Positions 36,905 to 48,588 of a stretch of 64,000 bases of DNA are shown piece after piece; within the stretch, counting starts at the first letter, position 1; every line of letters starts with the position of its first letter. The notes under the pieces are model-generated. The model searched no databases. It was not told the DNA's origin and was given only the letters and a program-made list of their open reading frames with translations. This DNA comes from Piedraia hortae CBS 480.64 (Eukaryota): positions 310,001 through 374,000 of the forward strand of contig MU005958.1 in assembly GCA_010093745.1 (NCBI GenBank). Direction: 5' to 3'. Position numbers and translations under genes: made by a program.

Positions 36905-39079
36905 ATGAGACCTGCTTTGGCAGCAGCGGCGCATCGCACACGTGCTAGAGCCACATCGTTGTCCACCGTGCCGCCAGCAGAAAATTCAGAGCACTACCAC
37001 CCTCATCTGGCGGCCATTGCCGCCTCCATATTGTACCTATCGCCTTGTCCTTCCAACGAGGGCCGTCGTGTTTACATATTGAATGCGGCCGCACTTCCCG
37101 ATGCCTTCGAAGTTGACTACGACAGTTTGTTGGCCTATGTTCTAGCCAGGCTTCCTGGTGAGGATGAGTTGCTGTCAGGCACCGAATATGAAATCATCTT
37201 CTTTGCTGGCGGTCCACCCGAAGGGGCAACAGTCGACAAGAAGGCCGGGCCCGGCGCAGGCTGGTATTTGCAGGTTTATAACGTCTTAAGCCGAGCAACG
37301 AGGAAGAAGCTGCAAAAGTTGTACATTGTGCATCCTCGCACTTGGGTCAAGGTCCTGCTCAGCGTCTTTGGCACTGTTGTATCGCCCAAGTTCAGGCGAA
37401 AGACGGTACACGTAAACACGTTGACCCAGTTGGCCCAATTCGTATCTTTGGAGAAGTTGCTCATCCCTCCCTCGGCTTACCAGCACGATCGAAAGTTGAC
37501 CCCAGAAATCATCGTGCCTTCTGTGAGTGGTCGAAGAGCGTTTGGTGCAAGGCACCCGTTACCAAAGAACATTGAGACGGGTCAAACAAGGCTGCCGCGG
37601 GTGCTCAGAGAGGCAACCACTTTTGTGCTACAACCAGAAAACATCGTTGCCGAGGGTCTGTTCCGTATTCCCGCACACAGCGTTCTGTCTGGCATCCTCA
37701 AAGAAGCATACGATCGCGGTCAACAATTTATCGTCTGGAAAGGCAATGGAGCCACGGTTGTGCAGCCAGGGATGGATCCCGCTTTGGTAGAGGAAGTGCG
37801 GACCGAAGATTCCTACACGGTGCACTCTGCAACCAGCCTGATAAAGCTGTGGTATCGTGAATTGCGTGAGCCCGTCTTTGGCGAGCAGAGCTACCCGTAC
37901 TTGAGGGAAAGGTTCTCCAGCCCAGACTCTGTAGTGACACCAGAGGATTTGGTGGATCTGATCCTGCCTGGTTCCCCATCTTCTCCATTGGCCGCCACAA
38001 GTCAGGAGATTCTCTCTCGGCACTTGTTGCCTATGCTCTCAGAGGTTGCTGCCCATGAGCCACAAAACAAGATGAATGCAGATAACCTTGCTATCTGCTT
38101 CTCCATGTGTTTGGTTTGTGGCCCTGACCAGATGGAAGACGCCAAGATGTCCTCTATCTTGCGGAAGGTCCTTCAAGCGGCTATCCAGATGTGGCCTCAA
38201 CTACGTTTAGGGCTCGGCATTGACTCAAAAGCATTTGAACACGACCTCATGCCACCAAGCGATATGCGTGATTATGAGGATCCGTTGGAAGAGCCCATCA
38301 TCGCCACGTCCTCGTTCAACGAGAATGGCCATAGAATCCAACTGGACGAGTCCGATGAGGAGAGCCAAAGTCCATCGACTTGGTCCCGTCAGCGAGCGAC
38401 GTCTACCGCCAAGCACATTGCAGGTGCAGTCTTGCCAAGGAAGTCGAAGCCGTCAGTGTCTGAGACGACACCACCGCAAATTGCCACGCCACCGCTCAAT
38501 CCAGGAGTAGATAGCCCGGTCAAAAGAAAACCCGTGCATTCCTCAGCAGAGATTTTGATGGAGAAGTTGGCCACTGGCGGCGTCACTTGCGACTCATCAG
38601 ATCCAGAAGAAAGCCGCAAGGTCGATGGATTCAAACCCACAATGAGCACCCATAATTCACTCGCACAAGCCGCACAAGCGGTGGTTATTTCGCGCAAGGC
38701 GCCTCCAATACCACCACACTCCCGCAAGCCTTCCAAACCCATTGTCGAAAGCAACAACGTCACGCACGATAAGCCCGAAACTAACAGTTCGAATGGCAAC
38801 ACCGAAGGACCCATGTTCGCAAAGCCCACCCATCCAGCATCATCATATAAGAAGCCCGCGCCACCTACAAATATCAACGAGTCAAATCCCATAGCGGCTT
38901 CGGGATTAATGCAAGTCCCGCCCCGCAAACTTCGCACCCCATCACCAGGTTTGCTCCAGCGAATTTCTTCCATGGAACTCGATAACAAAACCCCCAAACT
39001 CCCGCCGCCACAAGACAGAAACGCAAGCTTCAAGAAAGCAAGTGTGGATGATTTGAGGAAGATTTATGAGGGGAAGTGA
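36905..39079 (+). CDS. ECM25: CRAL-TRIO/BCH plus RhoGAP domain protein
   Basis: BCH-like KKLQKLYIVHP...SPKFRRK; GAP motifs EGLFRIP, KLWYRELREP, NKMNADNLAICF; Pro-rich tail. Confidence 0.85.
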   Translation: MRPALAAAAHRTRARATSLSTVPPAENSEHYHPHLAAIAASILYLSPCPSNEGRRVYILNAAALPDAFEVDYDSLLAYVLARLPGEDELLSGTEYEIIFFAGGPPEGATVDKKAGPGAGWYLQVYNVLSRATRKKLQKLYIVHPRTWVKVLLSVFGTVVSPKFRRKTVHVNTLTQLAQFVSLEKLLIPPSAYQHDRKLTPEIIVPSVSGRRAFGARHPLPKNIETGQTRLPRVLREATTFVLQPENIVAEGLFRIPAHSVLSGILKEAYDRGQQFIVWKGNGATVVQPGMDPALVEEVRTEDSYTVHSATSLIKLWYRELREPVFGEQSYPYLRERFSSPDSVVTPEDLVDLILPGSPSSPLAATSQEILSRHLLPMLSEVAAHEPQNKMNADNLAICFSMCLVCGPDQMEDAKMSSILRKVLQAAIQMWPQLRLGLGIDSKAFEHDLMPPSDMRDYEDPLEEPIIATSSFNENGHRIQLDESDEESQSPSTWSRQRATSTAKHIAGAVLPRKSKPSVSETTPPQIATPPLNPGVDSPVKRKPVHSSAEILMEKLATGGVTCDSSDPEESRKVDGFKPTMSTHNSLAQAAQAVVISRKAPPIPPHSRKPSKPIVESNNVTHDKPETNSSNGNTEGPMFAKPTHPASSYKKPAPPTNINESNPIAASGLMQVPPRKLRTPSPGLLQRISSMELDNKTPKLPPPQDRNASFKKASVDDLRKIYEGK

Positions 39080-39379
39080 GGCATTACATGATGGGAGTAA
39101 TGGCGGGTGGCATGGCGTTTTTTCCTGTTACTTTGCGCATACATCTTATTTCTTCGTTGGCATGAGCATGTTTCTTTATGAGAGTTCTGAGGTGTGCTAA
39201 TAAGCATTTAAATCTTTTTTTTTCCTACTCCTCGTGCTAAAGGCGTCTCTAGTCCGAAATTCAAAGCAAAACTCTATCGTGGACAGAAGCCCGTGCCAGT
39301 CTAGCGCGGGACAGTTTCTACACTACATTAACCCAACGCTACAAAACGCTGTAAACCATGTATCACAGACATGTCTTGT

Positions 39380-42300
39380 CTAACTGATCCCAAAGAACCT
39401 GACAACCGCATTTCTCTCCACCGTCCCATCCACTTTGGTGCCGCTATGATTTCCATTCTTCTCGCCAGATGTCTTGGAACAATTTTTCAAAACCAGCAAC
39501 CCGGAGGCCTGGACTTCTTTTACCAGACCAGGGACCAGGTTGAGTAATTTCTCCTCGCAAATAATTCCCGCGAGATAGTTCTCCTCTGCAATCCGTACGG
39601 TCTCTTTAACGGATCTGCTGGTGACTCCGCAGGGAAGTTTCGTCGTTGAGGAAGAGTCGTGCTTTTCCGAGGGACAAAAGGCGTTGCACAGGAAAACTGG
39701 ATCTGATCAAGTTAGAAAGAAAAACAAGCTTGGCGTTTTATTATGCGGAACTTACGAATGCTTTGCTTCCAATTTAATGCAATGCATACTTCTGCGTCGT
39801 AGGACGTGAAGATCACATTTTTGGGAGACGCTGCAGCTGCATTGATCATCCGACTCTGCGAATGAGAAAATATGACTTTCAGAACCGCATCCATTGTGGT
39901 GTTGACGTCTTGCACTTGGGACATATGAGACTCTTCCGCTTCAGATGCGTTGGGACGGCAAATATGCACTTCTAGCTGCATATCCGCGGCCAATAACTCC
40001 AATGCTTGTGCCAAAGACCAGCATGCTTCTGCCAGGCTTTTTTGGATACCAACAACATCATGCAGGTCTGTTGGCAACGACAAAGTACTTGTAGCAGTGA
40101 GGTCAGAGAGATCCTGGAATGTCAACCTGCTGATAAGGTCATTGCGACTGCGTGGTATTGACAAGTAAGGGTAAACCACCGGAATTCCATCGCTTGATAC
40201 TTGGACAAAAAGTCTTAGGTAGTCTCCTGATAATCGTGTCTCAGCCTCCGATCCACCTGGCTGGCTTGATCTTCTATATGACGGCATTTCAAGAGATCTG
40301 CTCTCGACTGGCTTCACAACTTGATAGCGGAAAGCAATGCTCCCCACTGCTCTCATACGCAGATCGAACAGCTCGCATTCATAAAACCCTGAATTGCCGG
40401 TGAAAATTCGGCTCGATGCAGCGGCTCTGGCGATTATTTTGCTGCCAAACCCAGGATAAATGTCAAGGTCGATGCTGAACGATCGCAAATCCTGGACTAG
40501 AAAGTAGACATGGTTTGAACCGTCTTGAAGTGGGAGACTGATGCTACGGGGGAGCAAGCTGGACAGTTTGGAGGTGACTGTCAGCCGTGCAGCCGGACAA
40601 CGACTTTCTCCGTAGAACTCTATCGGTTCACGACCAGGAACATCAAAGGACAAGAGGACGAATGTCTTTGTCTTGTCTAGGAAATGCTGTCCATAATGAC
40701 GAACAGGTATCATGGGTGGTGGTAGGCTCAGCGTTGGAATATTCTCGATCCCGATTGATGTCGGAGTCCGAGATCCTAATATTGGCGGTGCATTGTTCTC
40801 AGGGCCTTCCACCTGGTGATCTTTGGCATAAGTTGCTAGCAGTAGCATGCAGTTCAAGTGGCCCTCCCAGGCGGCGTAGTACATTGCAGTATGCCCCTTT
40901 TCATCAATAACATCAACGTCCACTTGAAGTTCCAGGAGTGCCCGTAAACTATCAAGATGACCTTCATTGGCCGCATAAAACAGGGGAGACCATGCGTACA
41001 GATTATCGGGCTGGTTCAAATTGGCGCCGTACTTTTTGAGCACAGAAAACACTTGTTTTCCACGGCCAAACCTTGCAGCAATGTGTTGTGGATACAGTTT
41101 CTCTGCATTGGGCTGTTTGGCTGGGAGATGTTGCAGAATCAACTCCACAATAGATTGTGTGGCATGTTGGCAAGCCAAGTTCAGTGGGACATTATCCGTA
41201 ATTCGGGCTCCTAGCTTCAACATCAACTTCACGCTGTCGGTCTTTGAGCCAATGATTCCATGGATGAGGGGGGTGAACGCATTGTTGTCTTTTGTGTCGA
41301 CACTGTCTGGTGCAGCAGCAACCAATTTTTGGATGATCTCCACAAACTCGTCCATGCAAGCGTAGTGAAGTGGCAGCCGTCCGTAGGCGTCCCGCGCCCT
41401 CACATTGGCACCTTTGGCGATTACAACATCCAAGGAGGCAACGTTTCCGCTAATTGCAGCCTCGTGCACGCAGTTACGCTCTGTGACTCTGTCGATGTAA
41501 TTGTAATCCACCATGCCAGTGTCATCGAGGACCAGCTGCATCTCAGGCGAAGACACAGCCATGCTCCTCTGAAACATTCTGCTGATGCGTTCCTTTGCAT
41601 TGTCATGTTGTGCCACATAAGTAGCCCACCTACGGACCACGTTTTCCTCGCCGGCACCTATGGCTCGAAGTAACTGTCCCTCAACTGCGTCTTCCGGGGT
41701 GACCGAATGGCCTCCGGAGGTAGATGTATATGTTACTGTCTCCCCTTCAGCCCATGCCTGTAGCTCGAGCTGTCCATTCTGGGCCTTGTCCGAGAGTTCA
41801 CTAATAACCTCTGGGTTAAAGCATGGTTGAACGTCAACAGCACGGGCAAGAAAGAGTTCTTTAGATCGAGACTGGGAAGAGTCAGCTTCCATTGAGTTCG
41901 AAGGTCGAGTACCTTTGATAGCTTGTCCCACTGCACCATGTTAGTGGGTTCAAATAAAACAGGGGAAAGTCTAAACCTTCTTCATGATTTTTGAAAAAGC
42001 AGTGCGATTGACCTCGACAAACTGCTGCAGCTTGTCAAGGTCACTATTAAAGAATCGAAATCCCTCTTCTAGTGTTGCATGGTCGGAAGTGAGTTTTGAA
42101 ATGCCACAAGACTGTGAAATCAGAGTGTCCTTTTGGTCCAACAGGGTTGCCAACCGCTGTGTAAGCTGGCCATCGTTAGCATCAGTTCGACACAATCCAG
42201 TATCACCTACCTCCCCCTGTCGCCGCAGGTAAAACGTATTGATTCTTTCGAGCTCACTGTCAATCTTGGCGAAGAATAATTGCTTGTTTGCCTGTGATGC

Positions 42301-42544
42301 AGTAGGAATGGCTGGTGATAGCAGTAGTGGTGCCTGTGTGCTCACACACTGTTTAATGAGCTGCCAAATGGATCAGATAAGCTCACTCCATCTTGCTTGT
42401 CATGGCCCACCTTCTTTAACCCTTTGTAGTCTATGAAACCTGGGGCATATTCGGGAATTTCCAGCTGACGCTTCTGTATGTGTTTACCGAATTTCCTAGA
42501 ATCGAGTCATCAGTCGAGTTAACATACATATGGGCTGCCTACAT
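39380..42544 (-). CDS. PHO81: SPX-ankyrin-GDPD-like CDK inhibitor of the PHO pathway (Pho81/NUC-2)
   Basis: Spliced MKFGKHIQKRQLEIPEYA...DYKGLKK SPX start, N.TAFSKI.KKWDK, ankyrin repeats (GRLPLHYAC, WSPLFYAANEGH, YYAAWEGH), ALNWKQ; six introns inferred. Confidence 0.9.
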
Positions 42545-42809
42545 GATTACGTTGCAAGCCTTCCAGGATGAGCCTCTGCTGGAAGATCTGGAGTGAAATG
42601 CGTGAAATTTCCAAAATCGGGTCAAGAAGTAAGAGCAGGCCACATCATGATGGCCCACGGCACTCAAAATTGCTTGGGAAATAGTTACCCGCGGCCCCCC
42701 ACTCCCCCCACTGCGGGGCATAAACACACGACCTCACCCAGTGGGATCCAATCGTTCGACTACTCGCTTAACTGAGTAATGCAATTGGTGGCATGCGAGA
42801 CTTCAGGAA

Positions 42810-42817: not shown

Positions 42818-42863
42818 GCTCATCGAGAATAATCTTGGCTATCTATCACTCAAATCTACTTCG

Positions 42864-45800
42864 TCACAGAAACGCCGGTCCGCTCATGTTTGATCGTTAG
42901 GTTGATTGCCCCCTAGACTGGGCGGCCGCGGTATCAAGCCTGCCTCACCCAGGCCATCAAAGCCCGTCATTTGGTCAAAGTTATCCCACAACTCGCTTCC
43001 GCCTCGTGCCTGAGACGCAATACTTGTGTCCGCTGCATGCTACTGAATCTGAGCCCTTCCTCCACGTTGACGGGCTGTTGTGACTTTGTTTGCGTTGTTC
43101 GTGGCTTTGAGTAGTTTAGACTGTCATTGCTGATGGTGAATGGCTCAATCGATTTTGACCAACGCCACTCGTAGGCTGGAGCATCCATGCGAGAGGTAGA
43201 ACGAATTGCCAAGGGTAGTGGGAAGGGTGAAGGAGAATGATGATGTAGACGTGTTCTCCACCTCTCTCTCATTTTCACACTCCCGGTAAATTATGTTCTG
43301 CGAGCATCTGCCAGCGAAAGGTGCACGCCAGGGGGTGGCGTAGAAGGGTCTTTTCCAGGTAGCACCCAGCTCCTCTCGTGCCGCGGCAGAGCCAGTTGGG
43401 CGGCGAAATTGACCTCTTCTTAATTGTCTGTCGACCACAACCCCGAATCCGACCCTATTTGATGGCAAGCGCCTTCGTCATCAGCGCCCAACCTTGACCG
43501 CGCGAGGGCGCGGGGGTAGCTTGGTGAAAATGCTGACCGTATGGACGTGCTAAGCCGTTTGCGAGGCTCTTGTTGGTCAACCGGAGGGTGCTGAGGGTAT
43601 GGGTCCCCCATCGATTTGCAAAGAGTCCCTCGCGAGCTGCCGCCCGACAAGGTTGCACCGGAGATTTGACCGTGACGGCCTGAAGTAGCTCGTGAGCCGT
43701 ATGCAAGGAAAGGACTGGAATAGCAGGTGCTTGCCCGATTGCGAACGAACGACTGCCTTTTCTCGTCTAAAGTGCAACCACCAGCAATGCAGTTGCTGGG
43801 CTGGACCAAACGAATGCTACTTCTTTTCTCTTCTTCTATCAGCGCCTGCGGAACTGACTTGGTCAAGTACGATCTAGATGGAAGTTGGGGGAATTCAGAC
43901 AGCAGGCTGGTGCCTTGAGTACTAAGGGAAGCTTGGCTGCTGCAATCGAACACTGCTGACAACCGAAAACTGCCGACGCCTTTGCGCTTATTTCTGTTGC
44001 CTTTGGAACTGTGATGAGGCAAGACTGTGCTATCCCGGCGTGGCAAGTCGAGATTTACACTCACCCGTGGTGCATGACGAGAGTCGGAGCGATTGACCGC
44101 GGACTTTGTTGGCGATTGTTGAGAGAGATGGTGTGAATGTCGGGCCATTTCTGTTGGCACAGAGAAGCTGTCATGGGGAGTGTGCAACGCAGTTGAATTT
44201 CCCCCCAACTCTGGGATGTTTGCATCGGCCTTGATTGTGGCTTCTCCATTTCCAATCAATGATACCTGGCTCTTGCCCGAGAATTGTTTCAGTCACTTCG
44301 ACTTTCTTCCATCTGGTCGGGGCGGGAGGTCGAGCTCGATCTGGGGCGGATGGTCCCTTCTGGGAAACGACAATTGATACTCGACATCTGCTGCCTCGCC
44401 TTTCTCAATGTCTTTCGCCACATGTGGTGGAGTGCTGATTGGGCTCGAACTCTGTATGACTATTGGGTACGAAATGTCTCTGAACGAGCGTGACGATAAT
44501 GACTTTGTCCTCTTTCGCCTTTTCCGACGCCAGCAGAGAAAAAGGCAGAGGGCTAGCAAAGCTGCGACTACTACGCTCAGTGCAGCAATGACTGCGATCG
44601 CACGTGGTGACATGTGCGGACGTGTAGGGGCCGAAGTAGCAACCGTTGAAGCAGTAGACACGAAGGTGTTGATGGGCGAGGCATGGCTAGCAAGACGACT
44701 AGTTGACAGTATTCTGGTCGCAGTAGGCTTAATGCCAATCTCGAAAGCCTGGGACTGCTCAGTTCCAGAAGCAGGCGACCAGGCCAACAGTGTGGCTGTC
44801 ATGCGAGACGGAGCTGCTTGTGTGGGTACTACGCCCTGCAATTGTCGCAATCTCGGCTTGAAATGTAACCAGTTCCTGGTTGCTGGAATATCCACGTCCA
44901 AAACAGTGTCCGGCTCCGAAAAGAACGATGCCGGAAATTGGTAATCAAATGTCTGCCCTTCGGAAGCCTCCAGTCTCCCGATGGCCCCGGAGATTAGCTG
45001 GACCTCCCCAGTGTTCAAATTGATATCAACGCTCGCCAAGTCTCCGTCTCCGTCAGCCACTGTGACTGAGAAGCTCTGATTACTTGGCATTGCGGGAACA
45101 ACGCCCTCGATCAGGAGGTTCTCTTGAAACTCAACCAGCTGGGCAACGAGGAAGCTGTTGCCCTCGTGAGGTTTGCCGGGCCAATTGGAATGCCATTGCG
45201 GAAAAGTTGATGCTGCAGCATATCGATGGTAAAATTCATGTTCGGACGGATGGTGAAGTTGTGTTGTGAAGTATAAAATGTCAGTCTTTTTCGCGCCTAG
45301 GGCAATGGCAAACCGGGCAGTCGTGCCCCCGAACCCTTGGACATCCGAAACAATGAGGTCAATGTCCCAGGACTGCGGAGGTGTGCTGAGGGCGGGCGCC
45401 GTGCCTGAGAATGACAAGCTCTCGGGGTTGAACTGCAACCATGAAGGCAGTGGCGTGTGGTCCGAGAGCGTTGCATAGCAATACAACTTGCGCTGGACAA
45501 TGTCGATGAAGGAACTCTGCTGGAAATGGAAATCAAGCACATTCAGTGGTTCCAGAGCCACCACGGGTGGATGGGTGCTGGAGAGATTTGCTGATTCCTT
45601 GAGTGGCTGGCTGATATCACCTTCAATTAGAGGCGCAGGATCGGCCGACTCGACCAATGTGCAGACCATATAGGCCTGCCCGGCCTCGCTTGCCGCCGTC
45701 AAAACAAAGTGTACGGATCCCGCATCGCTTGGGCCCGGCGTGCCAGTTAAAGTCTGCGACTGTCCATTTAATTGTAGCCACGACAGCTGCCCCGAGATTT

Positions 45801-45996
45801 GGTATGTAAAGTTCGACGTCGTTGGCGCAAATGTAGAATTGGACAATTGGAACTGGTACGGTTCATTGACCCGGGCGACCGTTGGTACTTGGGAATTAGA
45901 CGGAAACAGCACATTGGGGGCCGCTTGTGCAGCTGTGTCCACAGAACAAATTAAGCATATCCATTTTGAGAAAACTGCGAGGACAGAGCCATTCAT
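42864..45996 (-). pseudogene. AXL2: Disrupted Axl2 (cadherin-like/He_PIG repeats, TM helix, long cytoplasmic tail)
   Basis: FPSNSQVPTVARVNEPYQF, WLQLN...LTGTP, YATLSDHTPLPSWLQFNP...FSGTAP, IVSDVQGF and a TM helix; in-frame stops at 44293, 43420, 43291, 42967; frameshifts near 45290, 45125 and about 42910. Confidence 0.85.
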
Positions 45997-47145
45997 TGCC
46001 GCCTTAACAGCGTCAGCCTTGAGGATGTCGGGCGGTTGGTCAGCACAATAGTTTCTGCCGTTGATCAGAGAGCAAAAAAGATTTTTACCAGACACAGCCG
46101 AGGGTCGAGATTATGGAGTCGCGTGGATGCGAACGCGACACGTGTAAAGTAGATATTTTCGTGCCCCTCTCTCCAGCGTGGTGGCGAGGAATGGAAAAAG
46201 AGTGTGGGAAACCAGTCGTCGCAAGGGGTGACTGGAGTCTAGGAACCGCATCGCCTACCATCCTACCAGCCTTTCCGACATTCAAGGGACGCTCGTTCTT
46301 AGAGGCCCAGCCTTCCCTAGTGGGATGGTGCTGGGGAGGACGGCACGAACACCTCGCTTCCGGTCTCGCTCAACAGCAACCACTGGATTGATTGGAACGT
46401 CGGCAAACCCATGGGTTCGATTCTAAGGGTCTTGGCCACCTTTTGCACACATTCCATGTGATGAGGTAGCATTCACAGCTTCGCTGTTGGTACTTGAATT
46501 GCGTTTGCTGGTTACCACCCTTCGAAGCTCACATAAGGATGGCAAGCAAAAGAACAAGACTGGTACTCGACAAGAATTGTATCAGATCATGGTCTCCGTT
46601 CTGTTAGTGTCGACTTCGCTGATGAGGGTTCAGTGAGTTGCACAGAGCCATTGTTGAAAGCATTGCATGTCTGGCTTGACCCGTTTAGCTACGTGGTTGG
46701 AACCTACTTTAACCCATCATTCGGTCAAAAACGAGATATCGTTAGTTGCATGTAGCGTGTTCGACGGTCCAAAGATAAGACATCACTTAGTTTGCATTGA
46801 GGCCGCAGTATTGTTGTAAGATGAGATGCGACGCTAATCCCGTTTCGGCATCCTGAGATCAAAACCCACAGTAACTTGTTGGTAAACGCATCGAAAGTTA
46901 ACGGCGCAAAAGCTGTGTGACTATTCTGCTGAGTAGAGTTAACAGCTTGATTTGCATCTATGGTTCAAGCAAGATACTAGATAGGGAAACATCACCTTGG
47001 GTCGGACCGAGCCGTACCGGCGAACAATTTCCCCTAAGGGAAAGAGAGCTTTGTAGTGTTGTAATAGCACGCACGGATCGATAATACACACTCACTTTGT
47101 CACATAATTCTGCATCTGCACTAGGTTGCTCCGCGAGTAATTTTC

Positions 47146-47981
47146 ATGGATAGCTTTACCGTCAGTGAAGATCTAGTCACCTCGCCTTCGCATAAGCAAG
47201 CTGGGACCAGTCATACTGATTTTGATGGCCTTCTCGCGGCCAAACGTCAGCTGAAATTGCACGAAGATTTGGCACAAGGGAACGGAGGTCAAGCTTGGCC
47301 TGCAGGTCATGTATTAGCCAAGTACTTACTACGCACCTGCCGAGAAACACTGAGAGATTGTTCCATGTTTGTACCTCATTACGTAGTCTTCATGACAGTG
47401 ACTGATTGTTCAAAATAGTGTGGAGCTGGGTGCGGGTGGAGGACTTGTTGGGTAGATATATATCGTCCACCAGCATTGTTTGGCCGCGGCCTGACTGACA
47501 GTTGTATAGTCTCTCAGTTGCTCTAGGGTGTAAGCTACGGCAGCCAATTTACATAACCGATCAGGCACCCATGCTTCCATTGATGCAGAAGAACATTGAA
47601 CTTAATGGTCTGCAAGATCATGTCAAGGCAATAATTTACAACTGGGGCGACTCTCGTCCAGACAACATCCCTTCGCACCCTGATGTTGTTCTTGCTGCCG
47701 ACTGCGTCTACTTCGAGCCAGCTTTTCCGTTGCTATGCAAGACACTGGAGGACCTGATCGGACCGGAGACGACGTGTTACTTTTGTTTCAAGAAACGACG
47801 CAGAGCTGACATGCAATTCGTAAAAGCTGTTCGAAAGGCCTTTGAGGTCGAGCCTGTGCTCGATGACCCTGACCAAAAGACTTATGCCCGCGAGAACATC
47901 ACACTGTAAGTTTCCCTTGACATTAGATGTGGACATTATACTAATCAATCCAGTTGCACCATTAAGCGCAAGCATTTATAA
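47146..47981 (+). CDS. EFM6: METTL21-family protein-lysine methyltransferase
   Basis: GNGGQAWPAG, VELGAGGGLVG (small exon), ITDQ, NWG, LAADCVYFEPAFPLL, KKRRRAD; three short introns. Confidence 0.85.
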
Positions 47982-48588
47982 TGTCCTACTTAGGCCCTGC
48001 TGAACAAACCTCCAAAGCGAATAGGTCATCTCTATGGAGCGTTCGTGTCCGGAGCCAAGGGTATGTAGCCTTATATGAGCACTTATTCACTCGCTTTGTC
48101 ATATGTCCAACCGTGGAATTTCCGGGTGTTCCTGGCTCTCATTTTCTTGGCATTGGTTTTATAAAATCTTGTCCTCTTCTGTTGGCCATCCACGCAGCGC
48201 TGCATCCTCGCTCATAATCTTCAAGAAAAATGTCGTACGGCAGTTATATGCTAGGATACTAAAATTCCACGCTCTTGATATTTCTGGTACAGTATTCCAG
48301 CCCCAGATTTCTTCCCAAATGACATAGCTGCGCTGAGATGGGTTTGTGGGTGTTATATGACTACTCATCCAGCTTTTACAGTGTCCATCACTGACCAAAG
48401 TGGTATGCCGATGAGCCGTATGGGCTTAATACGTTTTTTGTGAGCATAAATAGTACATAATGATGTTGTACACGGAAAATCCAGCGTTCCCTCAACCCGC
48501 TAATAGGGTTAAGCTTGCGCAGTAGCCTTATTCCGCCCATAATCGTGCGAACTGTTCCACACATTATTCTTTATTTTGAGTGGTAAAA

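Follow-up and report, generated by a model that had tools for sequence, protein, structure and literature searches.

What has become of the AXL2 gene of Piedraia hortae CBS 480.64, and how much of its product could still be made? The question was raised by an initial annotation of the stretch of DNA analysed here (64,000 nucleotides, positions 310,001 to 374,000 of contig MU005958.1; hereafter the window), which described a polarity landmark gene caught during pseudogenisation between intact neighbours. The locus and its flanking genes are as follows.

45996-42864, minus strand: AXL2 orthologue of P. hortae CBS 480.64, frame from the ATG at 45996
39347..42546, minus strand: PHO81-like SPX-ankyrin-GDPD gene, downstream neighbour, intact, 960 aa when spliced
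47146..48103, plus strand: Methyltransf_16-like lysine methyltransferase gene, upstream divergent neighbour, intact, about 225 aa when spliced

The identification as AXL2 is supported by orthologue matches, as are its single copy by a genome search and the reality of its lesions by DNA and RNA contigs. The window protein matches He_PIG (PF05345) with an E-value of 4.7e-20, the top Foldseek matches of its model are cadherin and dystroglycan-complex folds, and its nearest named relatives are Teratosphaeriaceae proteins of ~1,045-1,110 aa with 40-48% identity; for one orthologue (P0071) the source gives the name 'Axial budding pattern 2'. It shares with Axl2/Bud10 of Saccharomyces cerevisiae and with Aspergillus nidulans Axl2 a signal peptide, tandem He_PIG/dystroglycan-type cadherin-like domains, a Ser/Thr linker and one membrane helix but, unlike them, has four stops, four frameshifts and a tail of 80 aa. 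Similarity to Axl2 orthologues nevertheless runs the full length of the gene, since the DNA beyond the first stop is a relic 41-51% identical to the close ones. When the intact orthologue P0004 was searched against the genome assembly (16.9 Mb in 132 contigs, with no completeness figure given), it matched a single place, this locus, so no second copy was found there. The arrangement of genes is also shared: PHO81 lies downstream of AXL2 in two other loci (L005 and L010) and in gene model P0009, and the methyltransferase lies upstream, similarly arranged, in locus L004. The neighbours are indeed intact, with open spliced frames in both.

A typical intact Axl2 orthologue is a single ORF of ~1,050 aa. 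In 11 of 11 orthologous metagenome loci, picked for full-length matches from 34 fetched, there is one ORF of 977-1138 aa, so that the idea that orthologues might also end near 44293 fails. A set of 87 Axl2-like proteins, all complete at the N terminus and all with a membrane helix, includes 77 whose tail is at least 350 aa long, and the median is 553. The window Axl2 also sits on a long branch, 0.71 against 0.22-0.27 for two sister tips in an eight-taxon codon model. As far as the accessible text of two phylogenetic papers goes, the long branches of Piedraiaceae fall within or close to Teratosphaeriaceae (PMC2816965, PMC4312929), which fits the lineage of the window protein.

Some minor features of the surrounding genes may be recorded here. 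In the PHO81-like gene two short introns flank a micro-exon of 18 nt (41913-41930; whole region 41872-41976, minus strand), and the start codon sits in an initial coding segment only a few bases long, ahead of an intron; the RNA contig described below is consistent with both features. The CRAL-TRIO/RhoGAP gene at 36905-39079 (plus strand) encodes 724 aa against ~780-990 aa in most orthologues; the shortening is in its disordered C-terminal part and fits general compaction.

Frame reading and frameshift-aware alignment together give four premature stops and four frameshifts in AXL2, the alignment (to a 60-orthologue profile) placing the frameshifts at about 45291, 45124, 43034 and 42900. The downstream lesions and what remains between them are listed below, asterisks in motifs denoting stops.

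44295-44293, minus strand: first premature stop, TGA, codon 568 (GRKSK*LKQF), at a column that is Trp in 11/13 orthologues
43422-43420, minus strand: second stop, TAA, codon 859 (STDN*EEVN), Trp in 0/13 orthologues
43293-43291, minus strand: third stop, TAA, codon 902 (ARRT*FTG), Trp in 0/13 orthologues
43026..43044, minus strand: third frameshift, near 43034, placement approximate
42897..42930, minus strand: fourth frameshift (near 42900-42930) and probable fourth stop, TAA, 42899-42897
42864..42896, minus strand: ancestral C-terminal motif RSNMSGPAFL and stop codon
42864..44292, minus strand: untranslated relic of the cytoplasmic tail, ~470 codons, 41-51% identical to close orthologues

The last of the lesions is read as a slightly upstream shift plus the stop at 42899-42897 because ST*RSNMS matches STQRSNMS of orthologue P0003. 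The three stops first reported in the AXL2 frame, GRKSK*, STDN* and ARRT*FTG, are all real and fall at codons 568, 859 and 902. A fourth, given as LTK*RAF, actually reads LTK*RAL and is an out-of-frame stop encountered after the frameshift near 43034, hence no lesion in itself. The frame does shift before SNMSGPAFL*, as had been said, but through two terminal shifts, near 43034 and near 42900-42930. Nor are the 567 codons ahead of the first stop free of lesions, a compensated frameshift pair at ~45291/~45124 having been missed earlier. The damage to AXL2 therefore exceeds that first reported.

Could the lesions be artefacts? Two sequencing runs contain the stretch, a DNA run (X1) that is possibly the source and a run from a separate study (X2) that is judged to be RNA because it has splice joints and poly(A) ends. 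X1 matches in one piece. The X2 contig covers 42819-47366 with no other letter and no gap and, of its splice joints, eight fall in neighbouring genes and none in AXL2. Neither the two runs nor introns thus rescue the frame: there is not a single difference or gap over the gene in DNA or RNA contigs (these being contigs, not raw reads, in which rare variants are invisible), no joint lies within it, and its lone canonical 5' splice motif (44064) spans no stop. The RNA also ends in a poly(A) tail.

42819..42819, minus strand: site of poly(A) addition to the minus-strand RNA, 45 nt beyond the ancestral stop codon

There is no genomic A-run at this position. The identical RNA letters, the lack of an intron and the poly(A) site at 42819 exclude assembly error and hidden introns, and the neighbouring genes are clean. 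Two frameshifts do lie in or near short homopolymers, and short Axl2 models are common database noise (9/87, several probably artefacts; one clusters with a 1083-aa member), but against an unblemished RNA contig from an independent study the chance that sequencing, assembly or mis-read introns explain this locus is negligible.

Transcription of the AXL2 locus continues, with polyadenylation at its old site. The X2 contig extends into the divergent neighbour, so that one transcript is not defined, and its depth is unsuited to ranking expression. Since the RNA is identical to the genome it probably comes from the same or a clonal strain, and is silent on fixation in the species. The 1.1-kb gap between AXL2 and the methyltransferase gene (46000-47087) is covered by the same contig fully and unbroken, reflecting either 5' UTRs that are long or that overlap, or a background of DNA.

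Premature stops are corrected by A-to-I editing in the sexual stages of Sordariomycetes, and stage-specific editing of this kind, or readthrough, might restore a longer protein in Piedraia. The first stop is the obvious candidate, being a TGA at a column otherwise mostly Trp, and its repair alone would lengthen the frame by 290 codons; furthermore, minor variants of the kind that editing produces are dropped from RNA contigs. The other evidence runs the opposite way. Just one of the four stops is at a Trp column, the second and third being TAA at columns that are never Trp in the 13 orthologues, the four frameshifts are beyond repair by editing, and the RNA contig holds no other letter anywhere. 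We regard recoding as very improbable.

What stays open ahead of the first stop is a substantial reading frame.

44293..45996, minus strand: open front ORF, 567 codons
45919..45996, minus strand: probable signal peptide, aa 1-26, from hydropathy alone
45123..45291, minus strand: off-frame stretch of ~55 codons between the compensating frameshifts
44536..44598, minus strand: transmembrane helix, aa 467-487, then a basic cluster

It encodes a signal peptide, He_PIG domains 1, 2 and 4, a scrambled domain 3 and the Ser/Thr linker, and ends with the membrane helix and the 80-aa stub of the tail. The hydrophobicity of the signal peptide (1.92) is just under the range of 11 others (1.95-3.20), that of the membrane helix equals the orthologues', and a helix at aa 464-498 in the AlphaFold model agrees with hydropathy in indicating type I topology, with a signal peptide and a single membrane helix. 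The first frameshift sits in an A5 run (45291-45287), and from there ~55 unrelated residues replace most of cadherin-like domain 3, whose homologous sequence lies in another frame. AlphaFold is confident of domains 1, 2 and 4 and of the membrane helix but not of domain 3, pLDDT falling below 50 at aa 236-253, 258-293 and 314-322, and only two He_PIG stretches score in the window protein versus four in intact orthologues. The ORF is consequently something of an annotation trap, catalogued as an ordinary protein (P0002) despite its truncation and 55 off-frame residues. Between 45123 and 45291 (minus strand) there are no stops in either the translated or the ancestral frame.

The distribution of lesions along the gene is uneven. 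All four stops and both uncompensated frameshifts fall after codon 567; together they have cost the protein ~85% of its cytoplasmic tail, whose DNA is still decaying. When four stops and four frameshifts were placed randomly on the CDS of three intact orthologues, a front ORF this long survived in 0.25-0.42% of uniform-decay runs, or 0.6-0.8% with three stops; this simulation is post hoc, having been framed after the layout was known. From the stops in the tail, neutral divergence comes to 0.06-0.11 substitutions per site, a level at which 2.9-6.0 stops would be expected in the front part, where none is seen. We therefore favour, with a probability of roughly 0.6, the reading that the single syntenic AXL2 of a fast-evolving, small-genome, Teratosphaeriaceae-related fungus has been lost in stages. 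The tail would have become dispensable first, while weak selection may have held the frame for signal peptide, ectodomain and membrane anchor open for longer.

An alternative is that a single event inactivated AXL2 and that all of it has evolved neutrally ever since, the front ORF being a chance survivor. Some measures of substitution are compatible with this. At a 90% conservation threshold the Ig domains have lost 19/131 columns, against 16/222 in RhoGAP domains (p=0.04), suggesting that the front part has decayed too, although at a 97% threshold there is no excess (4/67 versus 7/136). Ratios of window to orthologue identity drop in all regions, and a branch codon model on eight taxa, itself saturated, finds no difference between halves (omega ~0.08 in both, LRT 0.15). 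On the other side stand the low probability of the layout under uniform decay, the missing front stops and, weakly, a GC3 of 0.53 in the tail versus 0.58 in the front, the reverse of the order in 5/7 orthologues. Taken together these make one-step loss distinctly improbable.

Substitutions in the tail do not decide the matter. Conserved-site loss there (27/114) matches that in the disordered tail of the intact RhoGAP (12/55, p=0.85) and is thus not an independent sign of longer decay; an earlier indication of tail-specific decay (12/51 versus 4/67, p=0.007) was dropped because the intact RhoGAP tail is equally changed (5/25; 12/55). Repeat-induced point mutation (RIP), recognized by raised TpA/ApT and depleted CpA+TpG and usually affecting duplicated DNA, was likewise rejected as the inactivating agent: the gene is single-copy, and the tail has no RIP signature, its indices of 0.52 and 1.37 lying within the range of eight intact neighbours (0.41-0.55 and 1.24-1.48). 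The term pseudogenisation suits the cytoplasmic tail, but we do not take it as shown for the 567 codons in front, because the placement of the lesions implies that they were kept open longer. The loss was also called recent, and by the codon model it is, but only by comparison with the divergence from the closest relatives sampled.

If the front was held open by selection, it may be asked whether it still is, that is, whether the 567-aa product functions today as a tail-less, membrane-anchored, cadherin-like surface protein, for instance in hypha-to-hypha or matrix adhesion. The frame has remained open across a frameshift pair, an outcome reached by chance in 6-9% of simulations; the signal peptide, the membrane helix and five N-glycosylation sequons are kept; none of 19 conserved columns is altered in the remainder of domain 3 and domain 4; a poly(A) transcript exists; and the modelled folds resemble cadherin and dystroglycan ectodomains. 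Colonies of P. hortae, in the available portion of a published description, contain parallel hyphae bound by matrix (PMC11551259). Set against these are drastic substitutions at ectodomain sites that are nearly invariant (F33S, P71L, L149E and Y173C in P0004 numbering), the disorder of domain 3 in the AlphaFold model and the silence of the literature searched on any adhesion role for Axl2. In addition, long 3' UTRs promote nonsense-mediated decay, which the 1.5-kb 3' UTR here would be expected to favour. A short form under present-day selection is, on balance, unlikely, though of the alternatives to staged loss it deserves the most attention.

Yeast Axl2 connects Cdc42-GTP, Bud3-Bud4 and the septin Cdc10; its cytoplasmic domain was the fragment used in Cdc42 two-hybrid tests, according to the accessible part of one study (PMC10617600). 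The A. nidulans protein, in similarly partial texts, is found at phialide-spore junctions and is required for spore septation (Si et al. 2012 cited in PMC7555563), and it is induced by BrlA and AbaA (PMC7555563; PMC10253035). The accessible text of a Podospora study has axl2 regulated in sexual development (10.1101/2024.12.09.627484), so that Axl2 is more than a conidiation gene. In the window gene the long tail for binding Cdc42, Bud3-Bud4 and septins is absent, 80 aa being translated where the median is 553. The product, if made, would be a tail-less type I membrane protein presumably unable to couple a cortical site to these partners and, judging from the sequence, the landmark function of Axl2 is probably gone.

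The partners themselves are present. BUD3 (1487 aa) and RAX2 (1223 aa) have open frames, BUD4 is open for 1210 aa up to an intron, and in the four core septins, an AbaA-like TEA factor and the velvet genes the frames are open or their stops are explained by introns. Matches to septin, velvet and RhoGEF genes (L039, L052 and L060) that were considered as further pseudogenes were rejected, their stops falling in intron-like stretches. All the budding, septin and conidiation-regulator genes examined thus read intact, and the AXL2 loss is isolated among the genes checked, with no pathway-wide collapse. Because these partners have a role in septation as well, their presence is no evidence either way on a loss of conidiation. 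A search for con-6 gave no match in the genome, nor in any control genome, and so carries no weight. Two incidental observations arose from these searches. A veA-like velvet gene is split over two contig ends (L050:1-1960 at the start of C116 in the assembly, G000, and L053 at the end of C53), the short overlap they share indicating an assembly break and no lesion; and the four core septins are accompanied by a septin-like GTPase that is divergent and carries an acidic insertion (L046, G000:C16:162502-163488).

With partners and regulators intact, the link to lost budding or conidiation proposed at the outset is unproven. Neither P. hortae nor Teratosphaeria nubilosa is known to have an anamorph. 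The morphology of P. hortae, as covered by the parts of the descriptions at hand, comprises hyphae, chlamydospores, asci and a hypha-gluing matrix with conidia unmentioned (PMC11551259), published descriptions include ascospores, and the word 'conidia' has no occurrence in the available text of two further accounts (PMC2938571, PMC5514591). The comparison with morphology therefore holds in so far as these descriptions never mention conidia, while an explicit statement that either species lacks an asexual morph was not found in the literature passages seen; for nubilosa one such passage gives '? Uwebraunia juvenis' (PMC2104719). A tie between AXL2 loss and lost conidiation is possible, as a hypothesis. 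Selection was most likely relaxed because a programme of repeated spore budding, or of yeast-like budding, had been lost, though we would put this at somewhat below even odds.

Losses such as this one are ordinary and known, both as unitary gene loss and as the loss of abaA with phialide loss. The accessible text on the latter records recurrent abaA loss in Eurotiomycetes without phialides (10.1101/829465). The resemblance is that a conidiophore gene was lost where asexual structures were simplified; the difference is that there four lineages lack a master regulator and the trait correlation was tested, whereas here a downstream effector persists as a relic in one lineage, with the AbaA-like TEA gene intact and no trait test. 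Like transcribed unitary pseudogenes (e.g. PMC4425925, seen in part), the gene is single-copy, syntenic and transcribed with several disablements, which are real and unspliced, and no intact paralogue is present in the assembly. It differs in the uneven lesions and in the front 567 codons that stay open through a compensated frameshift. This contrast of an open front half with a decayed tail, in a real, transcribed, single-copy AXL2 relic, is what is unusual here. None of the literature matches listed, which left out most subscription journals, described the loss of AXL2 in any fungus.

The case has some wider interest. The role of Axl2 outside yeasts and Aspergillus is barely known, though the long tail is kept in most of the filamentous ascomycetes sampled, and a natural loss with the partners intact isolates that tail as the dispensable part and offers a way of testing whether one gene is tied to the absence of conidia. 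Should the short form still be selected, an extracellular function would be separable from the polarity function. Two database proteins may be relevant in this respect, those of T. nubilosa (P0065, 654 aa) and Coniosporium apollinis (P0332, 549 aa), each with a full ectodomain and membrane helix but a tail that stops shortly after the conserved PPQI motif; P0065, unlike the window protein, has all four He_PIG stretches. Both are unverified gene models and are to be treated as leads only. It is a long shot that the tail-less, frame-rescued Axl2 is a still-selected adhesin, that the same tail loss occurred independently in other black fungi with few or no conidia, such as these two, and that the Axl2 tail could serve as a genomic marker of spore-budding loss, with a second, extracellular job for the protein. 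Among other short models, that of Friedmanniomyces simplex (P0208, 471 aa) ends before the membrane helix, by real truncation or model error, and in P0073, P0209 and P0033 the helix is missing, apparently cut by a predicted intron, so that these are likely annotation errors.
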